The notes under the pieces: generated by a model
Databases searched by the model: none
Told to the model about the DNA's origin: nothing
The model's input: the letters and a program-made list of their open reading frames with translations, nothing else
Position numbers and translations under genes: made by a program
DNA from: an uncultured Rickettsiales bacterium
Lineage (GTDB): Bacteria > Myxococcota_A > UBA796 > UBA9615 > CAYRNR01
DNA: 64,000 nucleotides
Direction of reading: 5' to 3'
NCBI GenBank assembly: GCA_964493735.1
Contig: CAZBPN010000004.1
Span: 4,109-68,108 of the forward strand
In this document: in pieces, positions 1 through 10,759 of the stretch
How positions within the stretch are numbered: position 1 is the first letter of the stretch
Layout: the number at the start of each line of letters is the position of its first letter

Positions 1-318
1 GAGCACCCCGTTGTCCGGGGGGGCGTCGGCGATCGGGTTGGTGGCGTCGATGACCGTCTTGCCGGCCAGCTCGTCGCTGCCGCACAGGGCCAGGGCGGCC
101 TCGGCGGCCGTGCCCTTGACCGCCAGGACCACCAGCTCGCCCCATCTCGCCGCCTCGGCGAAGGTGCCCGCGCTCGCCCGCTCGCCGGCGTCCGCCGCCC
201 AGTCCGCCAGAGCGTCCGGGTTCCGGGAAGAGCGCATCACCTCGTATCCGTTGTCCAGAAAGCCCGTCGCCAGGGCTCCGCTGACGATCCCGGAGCCGAT
301 GATCGCGACCTTGCTCAT
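1..318 (-). CDS. NAD(P)-binding oxidoreductase resembling F420-dependent NADP reductase; only the N-terminal part is in the window, the C-terminus runs off the left edge
   Basis: The reverse complement of 1-318 translates MSKVAIIGSGIVSGALATGFLDNGYEVMRSSRNPDALADW..., a Rossmann GxGxxG N-terminus typical of the F420-dependent NADP oxidoreductase family. The ATG is at 316-318 on the complement. This ORF was not in the supplied ORF track because it is truncated. Confidence 0.55.
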   Translation of the reverse strand, partial: MSKVAIIGSGIVSGALATGFLDNGYEVMRSSRNPDALADWAADAGERASAGTFAEAARWGELVVLAVKGTAAEAALALCGSDELAGKTVIDATNPIADAPPDNGVL

Positions 319-408
319 GTCGTTCCCCTGTCTCGCGGGCCCGCTCCGTGCCCGCGTCGTGTGTTCGTCCTTGTCACTAAGGGTGATCCGAGCGGTTTCA
401 ACTCGTGA

Positions 409-1635
409 TCAGGCGAACAGCGGCAGCTGGACCGGTCCGGTCGGAACGTCGTCCATGACCGTCCTGCCGCCGCGCGAGGCGGCCTGGCGCCACTCGTCGT
501 CGACGATCGCGTCGAACGAGGGGCCGCTCGCTTCCCGCTCCAGCCGCCGGACCCGGCGCTCGATGCGGCGCAGGGCCTCGACCTTGTCGGAGCGGCCGAT
601 GCGGGCCTGGTCGACCGCTCCGCGGAGAGCGTGGAGGGTGCGGTCGTACACCTTCAGGGGGACGGGGAAGGGGTGGCCGTCCTTGCCCCCGTGGGCGAAG
701 GCGTAGCGGGCGGGGTCGTCGAAGCGGCTCGGCGCGCCGAAGGCCACCTCGGCGACCAGCGCGATGGCCTGCATCGTCCGCGGCCCGAGGCCGGGGGTCA
801 GCAGCAGGTCGTCGAACTGCCCGGCGCCGGCCTCCCGGGCGGTCGCCAGCACGCCGTGGAGCCGTCGCAGGAAGACGTCACTGGCCCGGACCTCGTGGTG
901 GGCCGGCATCTGGAGGTGGCGCTGCCCCGCGATCCGGCGGACCTCGTCGACCGCCACGTCCGGCGCGCCCGTGGCGAGCTCCAGCGAGGCCGTCCGGGCG
1001 TGGGCCGAGCGGCGGTCGGTGAGGTTGACGATGGTCCCCTGGGGCGGCCCGACCACCGCGTCGTGGGGTTCCTCGACGAACGAGGACACGGACTCGGACC
1101 GCCAGTGGTAGCGGCGAGCCTGGCGGGCGTCGCCGTTCATGCCCTGCTGGACCACGACCCAGTCGCCGCCGTCGGTCAGCACGAAGGAGTGGAGGTAGAG
1201 CTGGAAGCCGTCCTGGAGGGCCACGCCGTCGACCTTGGCCACGAGCTTGCTCGTGCGGACCAGCGCCTCGCCGTCCAGCCCGAGCCGGTCCCCCAGCGCC
1301 AGCAGCTCCTCCGGGGTCCGGCGGGAGTGCCGCCCCCGCCCGCCACACACGTGGAGCCCCAGCTCGCCTGCCCGGGGCGTCAGCCCGCGCTTGAGGGCCC
1401 CCATCACCGAGGTGGTGATCCCCGACGAGTGCCAGTCCATGCCCATGGCGGCCCCGAAGGCCTGGAACCAGAACGGATCGGCCAGCCGCCGCAGGAAACC
1501 CCGTCTCCCCTCGGTGACGACCACCACCTCGGCGATGGCTGCCCCCAGTTCGGCCATCCGGCTCGCGAGCCACCGGGGCACACGACCGTTGTGCAGGGGG
1601 AGGGATGCGGTTCCGGCGCGGCTGGACATGAACAA
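409..1635 (-). CDS. conserved hypothetical protein, possibly DUF763-like
   Basis: 408-aa ORF with protein-like composition (HSSGITTSVMGALKRGL, HVCGGRGRHSRRTPEEL). The family assignment is from memory only. Confidence 0.5.
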   Translation of the reverse strand: MFMSSRAGTASLPLHNGRVPRWLASRMAELGAAIAEVVVVTEGRRGFLRRLADPFWFQAFGAAMGMDWHSSGITTSVMGALKRGLTPRAGELGLHVCGGRGRHSRRTPEELLALGDRLGLDGEALVRTSKLVAKVDGVALQDGFQLYLHSFVLTDGGDWVVVQQGMNGDARQARRYHWRSESVSSFVEEPHDAVVGPPQGTIVNLTDRRSAHARTASLELATGAPDVAVDEVRRIAGQRHLQMPAHHEVRASDVFLRRLHGVLATAREAGAGQFDDLLLTPGLGPRTMQAIALVAEVAFGAPSRFDDPARYAFAHGGKDGHPFPVPLKVYDRTLHALRGAVDQARIGRSDKVEALRRIERRVRRLEREASGPSFDAIVDDEWRQAASRGGRTVMDDVPTGPVQLPLFA

Positions 1636-1693
1636 TTGTTCAGTACCGCGTCGGGCGGGTCATGTCAAGGTCGGAGCATGGTCGTCCGCGGCG

Positions 1694-3097
1694 TCAGCAG
1701 CCGTCGTTGGCCCCGCCCGGCGTGCCCAGATCGCCGTCGCCGTAGCTCGAGCTGGCCTCGCACCAGTGGGAGCCGTCGTCGTTGGCGGTGTGGGTCAGGT
1801 AGGCCGGGGCCAGGCTCATCGACGCCCCGGTGGGATCGGGGAAGGTGGCGCCGTCGTCCCAGGCGATCCGGTCGATCTGAAGACCGCCGCAGCTGAGGAT
1901 CAGCTCGTCGTCGCCGTTGGTCAGGTTCAGTCCGCCGCCGTACTCGTAGTCCAGCGAGACACCGCCGTTGAGCCAGGTGTCGGCCTCGGTGCCCAGGACC
2001 ACGTAGCCACCGCCCCACACGACCAGCGGGCCCGCGATGGTGTGGTCCAGCCCGTCGTCGTCGGACAGCTGGCAGCCCTCCAGGTCCAGGGAACTGCCGG
2101 TGGTGTTGTGGAGCTCGAACCACTCCCCGTCGTTGTCGGAGACCGCAGCCGGGTTCTGCATCACCTCGGTGACGATGACACCGCCCACCGGGACACCGCC
2201 CCCTCCGCCGCAGTCGTCGTTCGCGGCGCCCGGCGTGCCCAGGTCGCCGTCGCCGTAGCTGGAGCTGGCCTCGCACCAGTGAGAGCCGTCGTCGTTGGCG
2301 CCCGCGTCCAGGGATCCGGGATCCAGGCTCATCGATGCGCCGTCCGGATCCGGGAAGTCCGGCCCGCCGTCGTACTCCACGGCGTCCACGGTCAGCCCCG
2401 CGCAGTCCAGGTAGATCTCGTCGTCGGAGTTGGAGAGGCTGACGGCGCCACCGTACTCGTAGTCGACCACGGCGCCGCCGTTGAGCAGCTGGTTCCCCAG
2501 CGCGCCGAGGACCAGGTAGTCGCCGGGACCCACCAGCAGGCTCGTCCCCGGGCTGATCACGTGGGAGTCCGCCCCGGCGTCGGAGACCACCCAGCCCATC
2601 AGGTCCACGAAGCCGCCGCTGGCGTTGTAGATCTCGAACCACTCCCCCTCGCCGTCGGCGACGGCCAAGGGGTTGGGCATGATCTCGCTGATCACCACGT
2701 CGCCGAACGAGACGAAGTCCTCGTCCGCGATCCCGTCGCAGTCCTGGTCGACGCCGTCGTCGATCTCGGCGGCTCCGGGGTGCACGCCCGGGTCCCCGTC
2801 GTCGCAGTCGTCCGGCTCCTCGTACCCGTCCCCATCGGCGTCGCCCGGCGCCGTGTCGTCGTCCCCGGTGTCGTCGTCCCCGGTGTCGTCGTCCCCGGTG
2901 TCGTCATCCCCGGTGTCGTCATCCCCGGTGTCGTCGTCGCCGGTGTCGTCGTCGCCGGTATCGTCGTCGCTGTTGTCGTCGTCGTCATCGTCGCCGTTGT
3001 CGTCGTCGTCCTGCGGCGGGGGCGGCGGCGGACAGCCGGCCCACAGCAGCGCGGCGAGCAGCAGGAGGGAGAGGCGCCACGGGATCCGGGCGTTCAT
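1694..3097 (-). CDS. secreted lipoprotein with an acidic (DDDTG)n linker and two tandem lamin-tail (LTD) domains
   Basis: Signal peptide plus lipobox LWAGC. Eight DDDTG repeats follow the lipobox. Two copies of the LTD signature are present: SEIMPNP..GEWFEIYN and TEVMQNP..GEWFELHN. A GAGGAGG ribosome-binding site lies upstream of the ATG. Confidence 0.75.
   Translation of the reverse strand: MNARIPWRLSLLLLAALLWAGCPPPPPPQDDDDNGDDDDDDNSDDDTGDDDTGDDDTGDDDTGDDDTGDDDTGDDDTGDDDTAPGDADGDGYEEPDDCDDGDPGVHPGAAEIDDGVDQDCDGIADEDFVSFGDVVISEIMPNPLAVADGEGEWFEIYNASGGFVDLMGWVVSDAGADSHVISPGTSLLVGPGDYLVLGALGNQLLNGGAVVDYEYGGAVSLSNSDDEIYLDCAGLTVDAVEYDGGPDFPDPDGASMSLDPGSLDAGANDDGSHWCEASSSYGDGDLGTPGAANDDCGGGGGVPVGGVIVTEVMQNPAAVSDNDGEWFELHNTTGSSLDLEGCQLSDDDGLDHTIAGPLVVWGGGYVVLGTEADTWLNGGVSLDYEYGGGLNLTNGDDELILSCGGLQIDRIAWDDGATFPDPTGASMSLAPAYLTHTANDDGSHWCEASSSYGDGDLGTPGGANDGC
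2853..2966. repeat. about 7.5 tandem copies of the 15-bp unit ccggtgtcgtcgtcc, which encodes (DDDTG)n on the minus strand
   Basis: Direct reading of lines 2821-3000 shows near-identical 15-mers in tandem. Confidence 0.8.
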
Positions 3098-3133
3098 GTC
3101 GGGACCTCCTCGTCCGGCGGGGGCGGCGCCGGA

Positions 3134-4072
3134 TCAGGGGACCAGTTTTGCCCCGAAGACCGAGTCGGATCCACTGTTGACCGTCGAATCCAGGATCACC
3201 TCGACCGTGCCCTCCAGGCAGTAGTGGCCGTGGTAGTCCCACACGTAGTCCCCGGAGGCATCCACCTGGTCGATGACCACGGCGTTGCCGTCCACGAGGA
3301 ACAGGGCGCCGTCGGGGTTGCGGTTCTCGGTGTGCCGGCCGCCCACGTACGCGTCGTACCAGCCGCGAGGCACGTTGGAGAAGGTGAACGTCGCGGTGCC
3401 GGTGCGCGATCCGTCCGGGGCGTACAGGGCGTCGCACTCCTCGTGCTCGTCCCCCGACGCCGTGTAGGCATAGGGCCGGCAGGTCAGCACCCAGTTGTGC
3501 CGCTCCGTGTAGGCGGCCACGTCGTAGTCGATCTCCATCTCGTAGGGCGGGTTGCCGGGATCCGTCTCGCAGGAGTCGTCGTCGTCGTCGTCTCCCCCGG
3601 GGAACTCGCACTCGCACCAGTCGGACTGGTGGCCGTTGACGTCGCCACAGCTCAGCACGTTCTGTGGCTCCTTGATGCAGCCCGGCTCACCGCCGTAGCG
3701 CCGGACGCAGACCATGCCGGCGGCCGCGCAGTAGGCCCCGCAGCCGGCGCCGTCGGTGAACACGCCGTTGCAGTAGTCGTCCCCGGTCTCACAGACCTCC
3801 CACGCCGGGTTGGTCTGGGAGATCAGCGAGCAGTCAGCCGGGGTGGTGTCGTCGTCCCCGGTGTCGTCGTCGGCCGTGTCGTCGTCTCCGGTGTCGTCGT
3901 CCCCGGTGTCGTCGTCCCCGGTGTCGTCGTCGGCGACGTCGTCGTCGTCCCCCGTCAGGTCGTCGTCGTCGCCCACGTCGTCGTCGCCGGCCACGTCGTC
4001 GTCGTGTACCGACGTACAGCTCAGCGCCCAGGGAGACAGTGCGAGCAACAAGGCCAGGATCGTGACACGCAT
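3134..4072 (-). CDS. secreted Cys-rich lipoprotein with an acidic (DDDTG)n linker; function unknown
   Basis: Signal peptide with lipobox LSC, then a DDDTG repeat, then a Cys-rich module and a C-terminal domain of unknown function. A GGAGGGG ribosome-binding site is upstream. Confidence 0.65.
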   Translation of the reverse strand: MRVTILALLLALSPWALSCTSVHDDDVAGDDDVGDDDDLTGDDDDVADDDTGDDDTGDDDTGDDDTADDDTGDDDTTPADCSLISQTNPAWEVCETGDDYCNGVFTDGAGCGAYCAAAGMVCVRRYGGEPGCIKEPQNVLSCGDVNGHQSDWCECEFPGGDDDDDDSCETDPGNPPYEMEIDYDVAAYTERHNWVLTCRPYAYTASGDEHEECDALYAPDGSRTGTATFTFSNVPRGWYDAYVGGRHTENRNPDGALFLVDGNAVVIDQVDASGDYVWDYHGHYCLEGTVEVILDSTVNSGSDSVFGAKLVP

Positions 4073-4139
4073 GGGGCCCCTCCGTCCGTCGGCAGGATAC
4101 CAGAGGGGGCGGCGTACCCCGCCGCTGGCGGATCGGGGA

Positions 4140-5084
4140 TCAGCCGAGGCGGGTCAGGAGCTCGGCGTGGGGTTCGTCTCCCAGGTCGCGGAGGCGAACG
4201 CGCTGGGCGGCCAAGAGGGCCGCCAGGTTGATCGCGGGGCGGTCGTCGCGGGCGGCGTCGGTGGCGTCGAGCAGGACGATGCGCAGGCGCGGCACGGTGG
4301 TCAGGGCGCGGGCCGCAGCCTCCTGCTCGGCGAGCATCGCCTCGTGGCCGGGGTGGGAGCCCACGTTGCCCCGCCCATCGGTGATCAGGACCAGCAACCG
4401 CCGCCGTCCATCATCCCGCCGTCCGTCCGCGGCCAGGGTGTCCAGGGATCGCTGCAGCGCGGACGCCAGTGGCGTCGTCCCGCCGCAGGGTAGACCGGCG
4501 ACGGCGCGCCGCACCAGCTCGGCCTGGGCGGTGGGCCGCAGCAGCAGGGGGGCATCACGGCCGGCGAACGCGATCAGCGCGACCTGGTCCCGCTGCAGGT
4601 AGGCGTCTCGCAGCAGGCCGACGGCGGCCCGCCGCGCCAGGGCGATCCGCTCGCCGCCCATGGAGCCGGAGGCGTCCACCGTGAACAGGACGAGGCGGCC
4701 CGGCCGGATGCGTCGGCGATGAGCGCGGAGGTCGGTCCGATCCAGACGCAGGGGCAGCTCCGGGGCACCGCTGGCCCCGAGTCGGGGCGCCGCCCGCGCC
4801 AGGGTCTGCGTCCAGGCCAGGTCCCGGGAACCGTCGGCCGGCCGGCTGCCCCAGGGGTGTCCCCGGTGGGGCCGCCCCGACGGCACCGACCGGCCCCGGC
4901 GCCGGCCGGGGTTGGCGGTCCGTTCCCGGTCGCCCGACAAGACCTGCTCCTCCCCGGGGAGGGGGGCAAGCAGGGGGGCGTCGGCGTTCGCCGGGGCGAA
5001 CAGCCCGAGCCCGAACAGCCCTTCTGAAGGGGATGCCGGCGCCTTGCCGTCCCGTGCCGCGGCGGTCGCGACGTCGCCCTGCAA
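4140..5084 (-). CDS. VWA (von Willebrand factor A) domain protein resembling the C-terminal half of the ChlD/BchD subunit. The start codon is uncertain: TTG at 5084 or GTG at 4886, or the protein is made as a fusion by a minus-one frameshift from the upstream ChlI-like gene
   Basis: The C-terminal 250 aa carry the MIDAS motif (VLFTVDASGSMGG) and match the ChlD-type VWA domain (LITDGRGNV). This frame has no in-frame ATG upstream of the VWA domain. The same frame continues upstream through a Pro-rich linker (RRPPPLTPGAPDREPPPPQ) to the ChlI-like stop codon. Confidence 0.5.
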   Translation of the reverse strand: MQGDVATAAARDGKAPASPSEGLFGLGLFAPANADAPLLAPLPGEEQVLSGDRERTANPGRRRGRSVPSGRPHRGHPWGSRPADGSRDLAWTQTLARAAPRLGASGAPELPLRLDRTDLRAHRRRIRPGRLVLFTVDASGSMGGERIALARRAAVGLLRDAYLQRDQVALIAFAGRDAPLLLRPTAQAELVRRAVAGLPCGGTTPLASALQRSLDTLAADGRRDDGRRRLLVLITDGRGNVGSHPGHEAMLAEQEAAARALTTVPRLRIVLLDATDAARDDRPAINLAALLAAQRVRLRDLGDEPHAELLTRLG

Positions 5085-5179
5085 CCGGCGGCCGTGGTTG
5101 CGGATGGCGTCCTGTGGGGGCGGAGGCTCTCGGTCGGGCGCGCCGGGGGTCAGCGGCGGGGGCCGCCTCGCCGCGGCGC

Positions 5180-6226
5180 TCAGGCTTTTTTTGCAGGAGC
5201 TTCCAGCATCTCCCGGGCCCGCCCGCGCAGCTCGTCGGGAGTCAGGCTCGCCTCCTCGAACGGGCGGCGACGGAGGCGGTGGGCGTACACCAGCGGCGCG
5301 GCCCGCTCCAGGTCGTCGGCGACCAGCTCGTCGCGGCCGGCCAGGGCGGCGAGGGCCATCGCCCCCTTGATCAGCAGCAGGTCGGCCCGGTGGCCGTCCA
5401 CCTCCAGGGAGAGGGAGAGCTCGGCCGCGGCCTCGAGCCAGCGGCGGGCGGGCCGGACCGCGGGCAGCCGCGCCCGCGCCGCGGCGATGGCCGTGGCCTC
5501 CTCGTTCTCCCGGTCGGCCCAGCGGGCGATGAAGCCCGCCGGATCCGCCTCGAAGGCCAGGTTGCGCTCGACGATCTCGGCCCGGCGGTCGGCGTCGGGC
5601 AGGTGGGCGATCTCCGCGCACAGGCCGAAACGGTCCTGCAGCTGGGGCCGCAGTTCCCCCTCCTCCGGGTTCATGGTGCCCACCAGCAGGAACTCGGCCG
5701 GGTGGCACACGGAGATCCCCTCCCGGGAGACCACGTTGACCCCGGACGCGGCCGCGTCCAGGAGCAGGTCCACCAGGGGGTCGTCGAGCAGGTTGACCTC
5801 GTCCACGTACAGGACCCCGCCGTTGACCCGGGCCAGCAACCCGGGCTCGAAGCGGCGGCGGCCGGACTGGAGCGCGTGCTCGATGTCCAGACTGCCCAGC
5901 AGGCGGTCCTCGGTGATGCCGAGGGGCAGGGTCTCGAAGGGCGCCCGGCGGCCCACGGGATCCGGGTCACCCTCCAGGGCCCGGCAGTCGTCGCACCAGT
6001 CCGCCGGGCGATCGGTCGCGCAACCGAACGCGCAGCCCCCGTTCACCCGCCCCACGGGGAGCAGTCGCGCCACTCCCCGGGCCAGGGTCGACTTGGCCGT
6101 GCCCTTCTCGCCGCGGATCAGCAGCCCGCCCAGGGCGGGATTGACCGCCAGCATCCGCAGCCCGAGCTTGACCTCGTCGTGTCCGACCACTGCGGACAGG
6201 GGCATCACGCGTTCCTCGGGCCGCAT
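5180..6226 (-). CDS. AAA+ ATPase of the magnesium-chelatase subunit I (ChlI/BchI) family, with a 4-Cys insert
   Basis: Walker A motif GEKGTAKST and the ChlI-typical blocks LLARVNGGVLYVDEVNLL and LVGTMNPEEGELRPQLQDRFGL are present. There is a Cys-rich insert, CAFGCATDRPADWCDDC. Confidence 0.85.
   Translation of the reverse strand: MRPEERVMPLSAVVGHDEVKLGLRMLAVNPALGGLLIRGEKGTAKSTLARGVARLLPVGRVNGGCAFGCATDRPADWCDDCRALEGDPDPVGRRAPFETLPLGITEDRLLGSLDIEHALQSGRRRFEPGLLARVNGGVLYVDEVNLLDDPLVDLLLDAAASGVNVVSREGISVCHPAEFLLVGTMNPEEGELRPQLQDRFGLCAEIAHLPDADRRAEIVERNLAFEADPAGFIARWADRENEEATAIAAARARLPAVRPARRWLEAAAELSLSLEVDGHRADLLLIKGAMALAALAGRDELVADDLERAAPLVYAHRLRRRPFEEASLTPDELRGRAREMLEAPAKKA
5186..5192 (-). other. 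A7 homopolymer (A_AAA_AAA followed by G) sitting two codons before the ChlI-like stop; candidate minus-one frameshift site or homopolymer sequencing error
   Basis: On the minus strand the zero frame reads GCA AAA AAA GCC TGA (A K K A stop). The minus-one frame reads TGC AAA AAA AGC CTG (C K K S L) and continues into the Pro-rich linker and VWA domain. Confidence 0.4.
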
Positions 6227-6248
6227 CGGGTCTCCCTCGCCGCTGGAT

Positions 6249-8096
6249 TCAGAAGCCGAAACCGAGCGCCCGTCGGCGCACCATCTGCTGGATGTAGTCG
6301 TCCACCTCGGCGTCCCGGTTGCGCCACCCGGCGGCCCGCACTCCCCGCAACGCCATGTCGATGGTGGTGTAGCGGACCTCCTCGAGCGCCCGCTCCGCCT
6401 TGACCTTGATCGGGCTGCCGCCGGGCCACTCGGTCTTGTAGGGCACCGGCGAGCCGTTCACCACGGCCTTGTCATAGGTGTAGCGCTTGAACGGCTCCTC
6501 CTTGGGGTGGCGATTGATCGGGTCGACCAGCTGGCGGGCCTTCAGGGCAGTCGCCAGCCCGTCGAGGGCGCCGGAGACCGCCTTCATCACCGGGGTCGGC
6601 TCGCCGATCAGCTGGCGGTAGCGCTCGTCGGCCTTGCGCACCCGTCGGCGGACCACGCCGTTGGGGGCGAAGCGGTCCATGCCCTTGAGCAGCAGCCAGA
6701 AGGTGGCGCTCTGCCGCTTGAAGTGCAGCGCCCGGTGACGCCGCAGCACCGGGTTGTCCGAGCGCCGGCAGTACTCGTAGCCGTTCATCAGCACGTCCAG
6801 GCGGCGCAGCAGCGACGGCCCCCAGGTGCGGTAGAGCAGGTCGTAGCCGTACTCGGTCAGGTTGAGGGTCTCGTGGGGCGCCAGCGACAGGTTCTTCTGG
6901 GCGCCGCTCCAGAAGTGCACGTCCTCCCAGGGCACGTCGTCGATCCGCCCCTCCTCCTTCAGCCGGTCCCACAGGGCCGTGCCCGGGAAGGGCGAGAGGC
7001 GGGTCAGCTGCTGGTAGGTGGGCATCAGCGACACGAAGTAGTTCAGGTCCTCGTGGATGTTGGTGTGGTCGTGGAAGTCCCAGCCGCAGATCCAGGCGCC
7101 CACGGTGCGGATCCCCATCGAGTGCAGCCGCGAGAAGCACTCGGCGGCGTCGATCTCGTCCCGCTTGTCGTAGCCGTGGTCGCCGGCGAACTTGGACTCC
7201 ACGCCGATGAAGACCGTGCCCAGCCCCAGCTCGGCGATGGCGTCCCAGCCGTACTTCTTCGCGAACTTGCCGATGTGGTCGATGGAGCCGAACCCGAACC
7301 AGTCGACGGCCTCCATCATCTCCGGGTGCCCCATCCAGTAGGGCCGCATCTCGTCCAGGTAGGCCGGCTGGCGGAAGTGGTCCTCCTCGACCACGAAGAC
7401 CTGGCGCACGTCCGGGAAGTGCTGGAAGTACAGGTGCATGTGCTCCACCAGCTCCTTGGGCGACAGCAGCTCGATGCGCTTGCGGTCGAACAGGGCGGTG
7501 GTCGAGCAGAAGTCGCAGCCGCCGATGCAGCCCAGCCCCGACACCAGGAAGCCGACCGCGCCCTTGGGATAGCGGCTGATGTAGGGCACGGTCCCGCCGG
7601 CCTTGGGCATCAGCGCCTGGCGGATCGGCCGGTCGGTGGCCTCGCCCAGCAGGCTGCGCATGAAGCGCACGCCCTCGCCGCTGACCACCCCGTCCACGTA
7701 CTGGCTCTGCTCCGCCTCGTCGTAGCTGGCCTGGAACGCCTGGCCGGCGTAGGAGCCCAGCAGGATCTTGGTGGCCGGCGATCGCTGGCGCACGTAGCGG
7801 CACATCTCCAGCACGCGGTCCAGGTGGACCGGGTAGGCGCTGATGCCCACCACCGGGTACCCCTTGTCGATCTCGGCGGTGAAGTCCTCCCAGCGGGGGT
7901 ACTCCAGCAGCACGGTCGGCGTGTCCACGTTCTGCGCCAGGATGTGGTTGGCGAAGCAGTGGGTGTGGGAGATCAACGAGAAGATGTCGTCCCCCTTGGT
8001 GAACCGCTGCCCGGTGGCGTCGGTCAACGAGTCGTTGGCCGGCAGGGTCGGGTAGGGGTAGGTCGGGGTGGTCAGCAGGATGCGGTTCTCCAGCAT
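6249..8096 (-). CDS. B12-binding-domain radical SAM enzyme (class B radical SAM methylase-like)
   Basis: The CX3CX2C cluster motif is present as GCIGGCDFCS, within a 615-aa protein that has an N-terminal Rossmann-like B12-binding region. The subfamily (BchE, HpnJ, HpnR or other) cannot be resolved by eye. Confidence 0.8.
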   Translation of the reverse strand: MLENRILLTTPTYPYPTLPANDSLTDATGQRFTKGDDIFSLISHTHCFANHILAQNVDTPTVLLEYPRWEDFTAEIDKGYPVVGISAYPVHLDRVLEMCRYVRQRSPATKILLGSYAGQAFQASYDEAEQSQYVDGVVSGEGVRFMRSLLGEATDRPIRQALMPKAGGTVPYISRYPKGAVGFLVSGLGCIGGCDFCSTTALFDRKRIELLSPKELVEHMHLYFQHFPDVRQVFVVEEDHFRQPAYLDEMRPYWMGHPEMMEAVDWFGFGSIDHIGKFAKKYGWDAIAELGLGTVFIGVESKFAGDHGYDKRDEIDAAECFSRLHSMGIRTVGAWICGWDFHDHTNIHEDLNYFVSLMPTYQQLTRLSPFPGTALWDRLKEEGRIDDVPWEDVHFWSGAQKNLSLAPHETLNLTEYGYDLLYRTWGPSLLRRLDVLMNGYEYCRRSDNPVLRRHRALHFKRQSATFWLLLKGMDRFAPNGVVRRRVRKADERYRQLIGEPTPVMKAVSGALDGLATALKARQLVDPINRHPKEEPFKRYTYDKAVVNGSPVPYKTEWPGGSPIKVKAERALEEVRYTTIDMALRGVRAAGWRNRDAEVDDYIQQMVRRRALGFGF

Positions 8097-8135
8097 CTCT
8101 CGGCTCCTATCGCCGCGCGTCGGGGCGGCGGTTGA

Positions 8136-9044
8136 TCACGAGACCACGGCGAGCGGCGCCGGCGCGTCGGCGGCGGCGTGCTCGACCAGGAATCGACCCA
8201 TGTGGGAGGCGAACTCGGCGGGCCGTTCCTCCTGCCAGAAGTGGCCGCAGAACGGGATCAGCTCGAAGCCGACGGTGCCGGGGATCTCCTCGGCCAGCTT
8301 CGCCCCCCACGAGGGTGAGATGTAGCGGTCCTCGGCCCCCCAGAGCACCAGGGTAGGCCGGTCGAAGCGACGCAGCCCCTCCACCGCGGCCAGGGAGTAG
8401 CGCGCGTGGCCGGCACGGAGGAAGCGGACGAACCGCGCCCGCTCGGCGGTCGTGCCGTGCAAGGGGCGCAGGTACTCGCGGATCGCCTCGTCCGAGAACG
8501 CCGCAGGATCGTGGACGCCCCGTCGGAACGCGGACCAGCGCGAGCGTGTCTCCCGCCACAGGAAGGCGCCGCTCCGGACGAGCAACGAGGGCAGCAGCGG
8601 CACCTGCCAGAGGGCCTGGAGGCGCGCGATCTCGGGCACGGGCCAGTTGTCGTAGGCCACGCAGTTGGTCAGGACCAGGGCGGTCACCCGCTCGGGCCAG
8701 CGGGCCGCCAGCAGCTGGGCCGCCGCTCCCCCCTGGTCGTGGGCCACCACGGCGAAGCGCTCGTGACCCAGGGTGGTCATGAACTCCAGCAGCATCTCGG
8801 CCTGGGCGTCCATGTGCAGGGGGGTGCGCTCCGGATCCACGTCCGTGTCCCCGAGCCCCATCAGGTCCGGCGCGTAGCCGTGGACGTCGTTGCCCAGCAT
8901 CCGCAGCACGTGCCGCCACAGCCATCCCGACGTGGGGATCCCATGGACGAACAGAACGGGCGGTCGCGTGCGCGAGCCCGCCTCCAGGTAGGCGATCTCT
9001 CCATACGACGTGTGGAGGCGCTGCTTCGGCGCCGAGGGGGTCAT
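8136..9044 (-). CDS. alpha/beta hydrolase with an Asp nucleophile, of the epoxide hydrolase or haloalkane dehalogenase type
   Basis: The nucleophile elbow reads VVAHDQGG (HD-x-GG). The ATG at 9044 overlaps the upstream MerR stop codon (ATGA). The 720-aa track ORF is an N-terminally over-extended version of this gene. Confidence 0.8.
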   Translation of the reverse strand: MTPSAPKQRLHTSYGEIAYLEAGSRTRPPVLFVHGIPTSGWLWRHVLRMLGNDVHGYAPDLMGLGDTDVDPERTPLHMDAQAEMLLEFMTTLGHERFAVVAHDQGGAAAQLLAARWPERVTALVLTNCVAYDNWPVPEIARLQALWQVPLLPSLLVRSGAFLWRETRSRWSAFRRGVHDPAAFSDEAIREYLRPLHGTTAERARFVRFLRAGHARYSLAAVEGLRRFDRPTLVLWGAEDRYISPSWGAKLAEEIPGTVGFELIPFCGHFWQEERPAEFASHMGRFLVEHAAADAPAPLAVVS

Positions 9045-10546
9045 CCGGTCCCCCTCCCCGGGCCGTCCAGGAACGCCCGCTCGGCCAGCGCACTGGCCGG
9101 ATCCAGCTGGCAGATCAGCGAGCGGAGATCGGCCCGGTGCGCCCCGGCCGCCTCGTCCTCGTCCCCGCGCCCCAGCGCCTCGAACAGCAGCCAGGCGGCG
9201 TTGATCTGGTGCCGCTCGGCGAGCCCGGGCAGGCCGGGGGCCGAGGGCGGGTCGTCCTGCAACCGCGCCAGCTGCGCCCGGAGCGCCTGGAGGCCCCGCT
9301 CCCGCTCCCGGAACGCCTCGGGCAGGGCGGTGAGCAGCCACGCGGCCAGGTACCCCACGTGGGACGCGTCGGCCTGGGGATCCCAGCGGTCGAGGGTCGA
9401 GTCGGCCAGGGCCCGGATGGTCGCGGCGTCGGATGCACCCCCCTTGTTCCCCTCGGTGCTCCGGGTGTAGAGCGCCAGCGCCAGGTAGACCGACGCCTCC
9501 GCGGGGGCGCGATCCCGGTCGACCTGGTCCTGGAGCAACTCGATCCCGGGGCCGGTCTCGCCGGAGAGCACGAGCGCGATGCCGTGCAGCGCCAGCAGCT
9601 CCGCATCCCCCGGGACCGCCTCCAGCCCCTGCTCCAGGGTGAACGCCGCCTCGCGGTAGCTGCCCGCGTGCATGTGGAGCTGGGCGGCCTGGCGCCACTC
9701 GGCGGGATCGCCGTGGCGGTTCGCCAGTAGCTGGCGGTGCTCGTCCACCGCCGACTGCAGATCGAAGCGCGCGCGGAAGGCCGCGCTGGGCCGGTAGACG
9801 ACCGTGGCCAGCACCCCCGCGGGCGCCGCGCCCAGCTCGAGGCGCCCGTGCAGCGCCCGCTGCAGCAGGGACTGCAGCACGTTGTGGACGAAGCTCGACG
9901 TGATCTCCCGGCGCACGAAGGCCTGGCCCAGCAGCCGCTCCGGCGTGCCCGCCTGTTCCCAGTCCAGCTCGATGAACTCCCGGTGCTCCAGCTCGAAGCC
10001 GACCCGCACGTAGGAGGCCACCGTGCGGAACGAGGCGAAGGGGATGCCGAGCTGGGTGCCCTGGTCGCACAGGGCGGCCACGTGGGCGTCGTAGGAGGTG
10101 AAGCGCGGCGGTGTCGTGCCCTCCAGCGGGCGGATCACCTGCTGGCCGATCAGCTCCTCGAGGCGGCTCACGTCGACGCCGGCCTCCTCGGCCAGCTCGT
10201 CGGCGCTCAGGGTCCGGCCGAGCCCCAGGTCCGAGGACTCCGCGAATCGACTCAGCCGCTGGGCCAGCGATTCGATGTGGAACAGGGGCTGCAGCCACTC
10301 GGGATCGAACTCGTAGAGCTCGAAGATGCGGCGCACCGTGTCCAGGGGCAGGTGGAACTCGTCCCGCAGCTTGCGCACCAGGTGCAGCAGCCGCAGGTGC
10401 TGCTCGCCGTAGCGAGCGCGGGTCTCGCAGGGCGGGAGGATCCCCTGGCGCAGGTAGTGGTGGATGAGCTCCTTGGACACGCCGGTGCGTTCCACCAGCT
10501 CGCTGATCCGGAGGCCTTCGGGACGGACGGGGGTAGAGGTGCTCAC
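9041..10546 (-). CDS. MerR-family transcriptional regulator with a large C-terminal TPR-like domain
   Basis: The N-terminal MerR helix-turn-helix is LRISELVERTGVSKELIHHYLRQGIL. It is followed by about 350 aa that are helical and repeat-like. Confidence 0.8.
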   Translation of the reverse strand: MSTSTPVRPEGLRISELVERTGVSKELIHHYLRQGILPPCETRARYGEQHLRLLHLVRKLRDEFHLPLDTVRRIFELYEFDPEWLQPLFHIESLAQRLSRFAESSDLGLGRTLSADELAEEAGVDVSRLEELIGQQVIRPLEGTTPPRFTSYDAHVAALCDQGTQLGIPFASFRTVASYVRVGFELEHREFIELDWEQAGTPERLLGQAFVRREITSSFVHNVLQSLLQRALHGRLELGAAPAGVLATVVYRPSAAFRARFDLQSAVDEHRQLLANRHGDPAEWRQAAQLHMHAGSYREAAFTLEQGLEAVPGDAELLALHGIALVLSGETGPGIELLQDQVDRDRAPAEASVYLALALYTRSTEGNKGGASDAATIRALADSTLDRWDPQADASHVGYLAAWLLTALPEAFRERERGLQALRAQLARLQDDPPSAPGLPGLAERHQINAAWLLFEALGRGDEDEAAGAHRADLRSLICQLDPASALAERAFLDGPGRGTG

Positions 10547-10565
10547 GTCAACTCCTGATTTAATC

Positions 10566-10710
10566 TACTACACGAAATCGTGTAACCAATGCAACCCTAA
10601 TCGTCAGGGGAGTGATGAAACGGGCTGGGAGTGGGGAAAACGTCCAGGTTTCCGATGGTTGCGAATTGTTCATCATCGCGTTCATCGTTTTCGTGTAACG
10701 AGTTTACACT
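10566..10710. promoter_or_regulatory. divergent promoter or operator region between the MerR regulator and the secreted peptidase genes, with lower GC and repeated TCGTGTAAC motifs
   Basis: An inverted repeat tacacgaAAtcgtgta lies at about 10569-10584. A second cgtgtaac copy lies within tgtaacgagtttaca at about 10690-10706. The region is markedly AT-richer than the flanking sequence. Confidence 0.3.
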
Positions 10711-10759
10711 AGGTTTCGACGCGGGGTGCAGACGATCTGCCCCTGGAGCGGGAGGAACG

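Follow-up and report, generated by a model that had tools for sequence, protein, structure and literature searches.

The 64 kb window analysed here (contig CAZBPN010000004.1, about 72% GC) carries nine minus-strand open reading frames (ORFs) at its left end. The first five encode a MerR-type regulator, an α/β hydrolase, a radical S-adenosylmethionine enzyme (rSAM) and the two frames of a chelatase-type motor, a ChlI-like AAA+ ATPase and a von Willebrand factor A (VWA) domain. Comparison with related loci indicates that these five ORFs correspond to four genes and that they form a module conserved across bacterial phyla; the last four genes are lineage-specific.

Since the GC content is so high, ORF lists of the window are full of shadow frames. 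The frames of the nine ORFs are backed by a GC content at third codon positions (GC3) of 0.87–1.00, and independent gene calls on four identical metagenome contigs (L081–L084, with identical rSAM) give the same genes and boundaries. The co-directional order and the spacings listed in an earlier note on this DNA are thereby reproduced, and its domain calls were recovered in Pfam and NCBIfam profile searches. The first gene (9041–10546, GTG start) encodes a 501-residue protein with a MerR-family helix–turn–helix domain (Pfam MerR_1, 52 bits) and C-terminal tetratricopeptide repeats (TPR; TPR_14/TPR_9). It overlaps through an ATGA at 9041–9044 with the gene for a 302-residue Asp-nucleophile α/β hydrolase (8136–9044; Pfam Abhydrolase_1, 103 bits). 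The 615-residue rSAM (6249–8096) follows after 39 nt and the ChlI/BchI-like AAA+ ATPase of 348 residues (5180–6226; Pfam Mg_chelatase and AAA_lid_2, with NCBIfam matches) after a further 22 nt. Upstream, an intergenic and promoter region of 213 nt with lower GC content (10547–10759) separates the cluster from a divergent peptidase gene; downstream it ends at a convergent gene of 1276 codons. A scan for terminator-like or σ70-like sites inside the cluster found none, which is uninformative at 72% GC. An Rfam scan of the whole window gave no family at gathering score and no cobalamin riboswitch.

The ChlI-like and VWA reading frames

The earlier note described ChlI and VWA as two overlapping genes. 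The sequence around their junction argues instead for a single frameshifted chlD gene (fs-chlD). The ChlI ORF ends in GCA AAA AAA GCC TGA, which holds a slippery A_AAA_AAA run at 5186–5192 (minus strand) as a putative −1 recoding site. Such an A7 run is conspicuous in a genome of 72% GC. The VWA frame lies at −1 relative to ChlI and is open across the ChlI stop codon. Between 5621 and 4886 it has no ATG or GTG, and the sole conventional start there is TTG 5084, which is the start chosen by gene callers (4140–5084) and lies 95 nt beyond the ChlI stop. Read as the −1 continuation (4140–5186, minus strand), it encodes a Pro/Ala-rich linker followed by a VWA domain. A GC-rich hairpin is found 3′ of the slip site after a 6 nt spacer.

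The joined frames give a 695-residue ChlD-like protein consisting of the AAA+ domain, the linker and the VWA domain with its metal-ion-dependent adhesion site (MIDAS). Residues 9–679 align in one stretch to positions 2–640 of the 641 positions of TIGR02442, an equivalog model named 'putative cobaltochelatase', with a score of 614.9 bits that misses its cut-off of 779.45 bits. The ChlI part alone reaches 443 bits over positions 2–329 of the same model and 357 bits with BchI-ChlI. The ATPase has Walker A (GEKGTAKS) and Walker B (LYVDEV) motifs, and the VWA domain has a full MIDAS motif (DASGS...T...D) with intact DxSxS. The earlier note had considered that the two might be a generic MoxR-like chaperone pair. 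No MoxR (AAA_3) model was reported for the ATPase in Pfam or NCBIfam, where the best matches are Mg_chelatase, AAA_lid_2 and BchI-ChlI, and the scores of 357–443 bits place it in the BchI/ChlI family. Residues 65–81 of ChlI (window positions 5984–6034) form an insertion with the pattern C65-x3-C69...C78-x2-C81 between Walker A and the remaining AAA+ core, which could be a Zn or Fe–S site.

The same organization is seen in 13 other loci of the frameshifted type. At the position of the slip site 12 of them carry A7–A10 and the remaining one G_GGA_AAA (A7 in L001; A9 in L012 and L077; A10 in L003, L005, L008, L011, L013, L024, L091 and L092; G_GGA_AAA in L015). Wherever the two are adjacent, the VWA part is read at −1 to ChlI, and neither the window nor the 13 loci offer an ATG or GTG start for it. 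Standard decoding would produce the 348-residue ATPase and a −1 slip at A_AAA_AAA the 695-residue ChlD-like protein, so that one mRNA would supply both rings of a chelatase-type motor. In the A9–A10 relatives transcriptional slippage is an equally good mechanism. In annotation the two ORFs should be merged into one recoded gene.

Recoding of this class has been validated experimentally, with poly-A −1 frameshifting measured at up to 63% and rising with run length (Antonov et al. 2013, PMC3711429). Genes of the fs-chlD type have also been found in anaerobes without a large chelatase subunit and without a B12 or chlorophyll pathway, and the role of ChlI and ChlD without a large subunit is called unknown by the authors (Kuznetsov et al. 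2022, PMC9227772).

The radical-SAM enzyme and its hydrolase partner

The rSAM consists of an N-terminal Rossmann domain that resembles B12-binding domains, a cysteine motif C190-x3-C194-x2-C197 and a helical C-terminal domain. The three motif cysteines are invariant in 20 sequences, as are C47, C99, C337 and the segment SHTHCFANH. An invariant N-terminal segment (TYPYPTLPANDSLTDATGQRF...SHTHCFANH) and the C-terminal 200 residues are unique to the family. More than 400 relatives at 57–94% identity were found, all from metagenomes or metagenome-assembled genomes (MAGs) of uncultured organisms. Bacterial hosts are Myxococcota-like bins, Desulfobacterota, Schekmanbacteria, SAR324, Spirochaetes, Actinomycetota and Syntrophomonadaceae, and the archaeal hosts are many Asgard archaea (Promethearchaeota, Loki-, Hod-, Hermod- and Thorarchaeota). 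On this comparison the rSAM appears as the founding member of a tightly conserved, very slowly evolving and uncharacterized family. Cultured representatives, a dedicated Pfam or NCBIfam model and a close solved structure are all lacking for this unusually constrained enzyme.

The wider family was searched among 1.84 billion representatives, where the tight rSAM family collapses into one 50% cluster. It comprises 152 proteins at E ≤ 1e-30, and the full-length matches listed are about 25–46% identical. P0385 (696 residues, 29% identical to the rSAM) scores above the Pfam B12-binding cut-off and has a C-terminal SCP2 sterol/lipid-transfer domain. One Hodarchaeota MAG (DZ1B.199) holds three rSAM paralogues, L042 and L057 about 20 kb apart on contig JBHLJY010000001.1 and L072, which marks an expansion of the family in some Asgard genomes. 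Some names in the records look wrong. Many members (P0008, P0036, P0041, P0119 and others) bear the JGI name 'haloalkane dehalogenase', an annotation artefact that presumably came by transfer from hydrolase–rSAM fusions. Some MAG records with this module, of 70% GC, are titled 'uncultured Rickettsiales' or 'Enterobacterales', and these titles look unreliable.

The earlier note labelled the enzyme a B12-binding rSAM. In Pfam both B12-binding (23 versus 32.1 bits) and Radical_SAM (17.5 versus 29.5 bits) remain under their cut-offs, and PDB sequence searches gave nothing usable. An AlphaFold model built from 20 sequences (pLDDT 77, pTM 0.82) was compared with known structures using Foldseek and matches the class B radical-SAM enzymes TsrM, MgmA, TokK and CysS at 12–16% identity and a TM-score of about 0.4. 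The Rossmann fold aligns with the B12 domains of TsrM, TokK, CysS and MetH and equally with AprD4 and RimO/MiaB. It is this fold comparison that gives the predicted architecture, a Rossmann domain with a radical-SAM barrel, which is class-B-like; the enzyme may use cobalamin. Structure prediction, which the earlier note had proposed for placing the enzyme in a known subfamily, gave matches to known class B enzymes at the fold level only (12–18% identity). HpnJ, which the note had named as an example of a housekeeping subfamily, scores 35.1 bits against a cut-off of 577.6 bits, and NCBIfam listed no BchE model at E ≤ 0.01. No NCBIfam model reaches its cut-off, with HpnJ, ApyD and the MCR glutamine methylase being marginal. 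The rSAM differs from TsrM, TokK, CysS, MgmA and OxsB in its low identity (11–18%) and its subthreshold B12-binding match. The 1,2-diol dehydratase AprD4 (PDB entry 6fd2) is 15% identical to it and 160 residues shorter. AprD4 is not known to bind B12, and its partner is an NADPH reductase and not a hydrolase.

The hydrolase has a haloalkane-dehalogenase fold with the Asp nucleophile in an H-D-Q-G-G elbow. Its nearest solved relative is DhaA (80 bits), and it shares with DhaA (HLD-II) and the epoxide hydrolases the fold, the HG-x-PTS-x-x-LWR motif, the Asp nucleophile and the C-terminal His base. In contrast to DhaA the halide-stabilizing pair is gone (N41 to I, W107 to Q) and Glu130 is replaced by Asn. 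Because Asn41 and Trp107 are replaced, the enzyme is not a strict dehalogenase. NCBIfam models for haloalkane dehalogenases give 64–90 bits against cut-offs of 241–466 bits, and the BchO model TIGR03056 gives 57 bits against 172.55. Across 47 homologues, those of archaea among them, conservation of the motifs HG.P (oxyanion), H-D-x-G-G and G-H-F..E is 90% or more.

Gene neighbourhoods were compared in 80 species-level rSAM loci with up to 10 kb of flank, using tblastn and ORF clustering. The hydrolase family adjoins the rSAM in 66 of the 80, always on the same strand, so the constant partner of the rSAM is the hydrolase and not the motor, which the earlier note had placed with the rSAM in a trio. 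In the Myxococcota-like clade the hydrolase is upstream (about 60% identity to the window copy), and in archaea, Actinomycetota and Desulfobacterales it is downstream (about 27%). Two independent fusions join the partners in opposite orders, hydrolase–rSAM in P0039 (922 residues) and rSAM–hydrolase in P0320 (902 residues, a 34%-identical relative). The hydrolase and the rSAM are an obligate pair; optional additions to it are the regulator, the ChlI/ChlD motor and a PlsA/Ger-like enzyme. The pair is found without a motor in Asgard archaea and in many bacteria. In several loci the gene after the pair is convergent, so that the pair stands on its own. A protein of about 500 residues with HEAT and leucine-rich repeats often follows the pair in archaea (23 loci; for example L089 10104–11600 and L067 13101–14597), and a divergent winged-helix regulator precedes it in 14 archaeal loci (L049 9198–9884). 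In L089, methylmalonyl-CoA mutase, its B12-binding subunit and MeaB are encoded just upstream.

Accessory and passenger genes

ChlI/ChlD genes are found in about 15 of the 80 loci. Among bacterial loci whose downstream flank is at least 3.5 kb long, they follow the pair in 10 of 34. Both deep bacterial branches of the rSAM tree include motor-linked loci. In the Myxococcota-like clade it is the frameshifted gene that follows the pair. In L026 (Desulfobacteraceae) the order is rSAM, ChlI (338 residues), a full-length ChlD (706 residues) and hydrolase, with gaps of 22, 10 and 57 nt, and the pattern of tblastn matches suggests a similar layout in L020 and L050. As indirect evidence, the longest contig of at least 21 of the 120 closest ChlI relatives equals in size that of an rSAM member; L092, one such contig that was inspected, has the same five-gene module. 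Two other close relatives are a stand-alone fs-chlD (L091) and a ChlD+ChlI pair (L093). Conservation of the rSAM/ChlI/VWA neighbourhood across phyla, put forward in the earlier note, is borne out by Myxococcota-like, Desulfobacterota, Schekmanbacteria and Spirochaetes MAGs. With the HpnJ and MoxR results above, neither of the outcomes that the note had named as refuting its reading applies.

No large chelatase subunit accompanies these genes. The window has no ORF of at least 1100 codons, which agrees with the earlier note, and the CobN/ChlH family is absent from the conserved neighbours in the 80 loci and from the 10 kb flanks of the linked loci. Inspection of 8 kb around the three ChlI relatives L091, L092 and L093 revealed no CobN either. 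That CobN might lie just past the left edge was considered and rejected, as the convergent gene of 1276 codons seen there on L081 encodes a secreted protein with a MopE motif and GH130/GH32-like features. Among the best 120 of 401 matches to the Spirochaetes MAG homologue there are no cultured Spirochaeta or Brevefilum, which are hosts of orphan fs-chlD; the idea that the published orphan hosts have this rSAM gains no support from these matches. A literature search on rSAM together with a chelatase motor, fs-chlD or an Asgard hydrolase retrieved no description of the module. The cluster is uncharacterized, as it was called before.

A second neighbour is a protein of about 1400 residues with two BcrAD_BadFG domains, DUF2229 and a weak HGD-D match. 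It is linked in 12 distinct loci, nine of them among the 34 bacterial ones (L005, L011, L012, L015, L018, L022, L023, L025, L043, L053, L056 and L080; for example L086 13898–18121), its gene following the rSAM or the VWA part in 11 and lying upstream of the pair in L015. The ether-lipid enzyme Ger/PlsA has been described with this domain order, two BcrAD_BadFG domains followed by DUF2229 and HGD-D (PMC13159169), and the neighbour in the 12 loci resembles PlsA/Ger in this respect. Beside a role as a pure electron-transfer 'activase' of the rSAM, the self-contained PlsA/Ger-like architecture makes that of a lipid enzyme no less likely. This neighbour and the SCP2 fusion in P0385 point weakly to a lipid-like substrate.

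Of 36 bacterial loci with sufficient flank, 12 encode a homologue of the MerR–TPR regulator (35–81% identity) immediately before the hydrolase, and L092 does so too. In the window the promoter region reads in order TTGCAT (10594–10589, resembling a −35 hexamer), a palindrome, TAGATT (10567–10562, resembling a −10 hexamer), AGGAG (10556–10552) and the GTG start. The palindrome, TACACGA-TT-TCGTGTA at 10584–10569, is a perfect 16 bp repeat (7+2+7) located inside the 21 nt spacer between TTGCAT and TAGATT. A dyad within an over-long promoter spacer is the classic layout of a MerR operator. A second inverted repeat, GTGTAA-N5-TTACAC, is present at 10709–10693. Related TACACGA-N2-4-(T)CGTGTA palindromes lie upstream of the merR homologues in L006, L012, L025, L054 and L080, and half-sites are found in L001, L008, L013, L014 and L077. 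Since related palindromes occur in at least five distant loci, the module appears to own a conserved control element. The palindrome is a candidate operator, and the regulator probably autoregulates from TACACGA-N2-TCGTGTA.

The remaining four minus-strand genes are passengers. After 67 nt the VWA frame is followed by a gene for a Cys-rich lipoprotein of 312 residues (3134–4072) with acidic (D3-4[TV][GA]) repeats and no Pfam or NCBIfam match, and after 36 nt by a 467-residue lipoprotein (1694–3097) with DDDTG repeats, a MopE-like Cys motif and two lamin-tail domains (LTD, 101 bits in two stretches). In both, long acidic repeats start right after the lipobox Cys, and the MopE-like DCDD...PG Cys motif of the second recurs in the 1276-residue neighbour past the left edge. 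The two look like a lineage-specific secreted set, possibly binding Ca or other metals. After 58 or 64 nt (start TTG 1635 or ATG 1629) comes a DUF763 protein (409–1629, 406 residues), a tentative call that PF05559 confirms with 416 bits. After 90 nt this is followed by an NADP/F420-type oxidoreductase (1–318; F420_oxidored, 71 bits), of which the window edge leaves the N-terminal 106 residues; the protein has 215 residues in full on L081. The last two genes may be an independent pair, apart from the module.

Function of the module and comparison with known systems

We consider it on balance probable that the locus combines a conserved module of regulator, hydrolase, rSAM and fs-chlD with four unrelated passengers. 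The hydrolase and the rSAM would work together, perhaps as a complex, on one substrate. In a speculative proposal that we regard as rather doubtful, the pair would modify a hydrophobic, lipid-like substrate in two steps: the rSAM would functionalize an unactivated carbon, and a covalent Asp-ester intermediate would be formed or resolved by the hydrolase. The motor, of ChlI6/ChlD6 type, would use its MIDAS site to dock on the rSAM or the rSAM–hydrolase complex and would load or exchange a metallocofactor, which would be a corrinoid if the rSAM does use B12. Because CobN/ChlH is absent nearby, the Asgard pair is motor-free and the Desulfobacteraceae chlI and chlD genes lie between the core genes, the motor may tentatively be seen as an accessory ATP-driven maturase or activase for the pair. 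That its client is the rSAM (or the complex) rather than a tetrapyrrole chelatase subunit, with the motor serving as an ATP-driven maturase or re-activase, is a possibility that we hold less likely than not.

Several observations weigh against these proposals. About 70% of the bacterial loci and all 36 archaeal loci have no adjacent motor, and L091, a near relative of the motor, stands alone without rSAM, so that the motor could serve another client. A distal cobN may be present elsewhere in the genome, the scope of the search having been the 64 kb window. The PlsA/Ger-like gene is absent from the window, and its domain architecture alone does not prove an ether-lipid role. Compared with shuffled sequence, the hairpin after the slip site has no extra stability (z = −0.37), and because A7 is the shortest run of the set the efficiency of frameshifting in the window may be low. 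The substrate, the use of cobalamin and the client of the motor are all read from gene context.

The chief rival holds that fs-chlD is an ordinary gene for a small/medium cobaltochelatase subunit that serves a distal CobN in B12 synthesis, its adjacency to the rSAM reflecting co-regulation of a B12-dependent enzyme with the supply of B12. It would explain why the gene has the same architecture and poly-A recoding as CobN-associated fs-chlD (PMC9227772, PMC3711429), why the best NCBIfam model is TIGR02442 and why the neighbouring rSAM has a B12-binding-like domain. However, the fused product falls well short of that model's cut-off (615 against 779 bits), no CobN was found in the window or in any of the flanks inspected, and fs-chlD is documented in genomes without a B12 pathway (PMC9227772). 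The location of chlI and chlD between rSAM and hydrolase in L026 is moreover hard to square with cofactor supply alone, and we judge this explanation unlikely. At the other extreme the motor and the rSAM could be neighbours only because gene order happened to evolve so in a few related lineages, without functional coupling. The motor is indeed missing from most loci and L091 is a stand-alone copy, but the linkage recurs in both deep bacterial branches with two encodings (frameshifted, or separate ChlI and ChlD), two gene orders and only about 50–60% protein identity, and we give coincidence very little probability.

The pair might also be a MerR-induced catabolic or detoxification system acting, for example, on organohalides or epoxides, in which a corrinoid/Fe–S enzyme and a hydrolase of dehalogenase fold would work one after the other, with the ATPases as reductive or mechanical activators. 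The nearest solved relatives of the hydrolase are haloalkane dehalogenases and epoxide hydrolases and the Asp nucleophile is kept; the adjacent regulators (MerR–TPR in bacteria, winged helix in the 14 archaeal loci) point to inducible expression, the hosts are anaerobes from sediment and groundwater, and BcrAD-type ATPases are low-potential electron activators. Set against this, both halide-stabilizing residues of DhaA are replaced, a catabolic enzyme would not usually keep at least 57% identity over two domains of life, and the conserved neighbours include neither a transporter nor a further catabolic gene; such a role appears improbable. The earlier note took all nine genes as one operon that matures a novel cofactor or metabolite, to be exported or displayed via the lipoproteins. 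The genes are co-directional with short gaps, no internal terminator was detected and the same arrangement is present on four metagenome contigs. These contigs represent one population, however, their rSAM being 100% identical. Among the 80 other loci the Cys-rich lipoprotein, DUF763 and the F420-type reductase are never found near rSAM, an LTD protein occurs in one (L010), unlinked and on the opposite strand, and other lineages have different or convergent genes after the module. As a unit only the first five ORFs are conserved. The last four genes accompany the rSAM on near-identical contigs only, which leaves the export idea without support, and sequence comparison largely refutes the nine-gene reading, to which we attach very little probability.

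Within the preferred reading of a conserved module, the recoding family is known, and what is new is the extremely conserved rSAM–hydrolase pair found across domains together with its repeated operon link to orphan motors. The recurrence of this link in several phyla is a first genomic clue to the client of orphan ChlI/ChlD, a question raised previously (PMC9227772), and provides a concrete candidate. If the motor does serve the rSAM, this would explain why orphan chlI/chlD genes are found in organisms with neither a chlorophyll nor a B12 pathway, and sediment bacteria and Asgard archaea would share a new enzyme system, possibly one for membrane lipids. The PlsA/Ger-like neighbours and the SCP2 fusion hint at lipid modification. 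Several radical steps in this area, such as the methylation and cyclization of bacterial tetraethers, still lack known enzymes.

The window gene resembles published fs-chlD genes in that a ChlI-like AAA+ ORF stops just past a poly-A run and a startless linker–VWA frame continues at −1 (PMC3711429, PMC9227772). It differs from the CobN-associated members in having no CobN/ChlH nearby and in scoring below the TIGR02442 cut-off, and it belongs with the 'orphan' fs-chlD genes. It shares its operon with genes for a hydrolase and a radical-SAM enzyme, and neither paper mentions such a setting (PMC3711429, PMC9227772). As in CobST–CobN and ChlID–ChlH, an ATPase ring with a MIDAS adaptor would be found next to a metalloenzyme client, here with a motor that is dispensable in some lineages.

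The MoxR/VWA pairs NorQD, CbbQO and CoxDE act on their client enzymes. The ATPase of the module is set apart from these MoxR-type systems by belonging to the BchI/ChlI family, and we know of no precedent for a radical-SAM enzyme as the client of an AAA+/VWA pair. A parallel in content is bchI–bchD–bchO with bchE, which comprises four corresponding protein types (a ChlI-type ATPase, a ChlD-type VWA protein, an α/β hydrolase and a B12-type radical-SAM enzyme, in the module a class-B-like one). In contrast to the bch genes, the hydrolase of the module is below the BchO cut-off, the rSAM has no BchE match and neither BchH nor other pigment genes are present. The hosts differ as well, since those of the module include non-phototrophic Asgard archaea, which have the pair without the motor.

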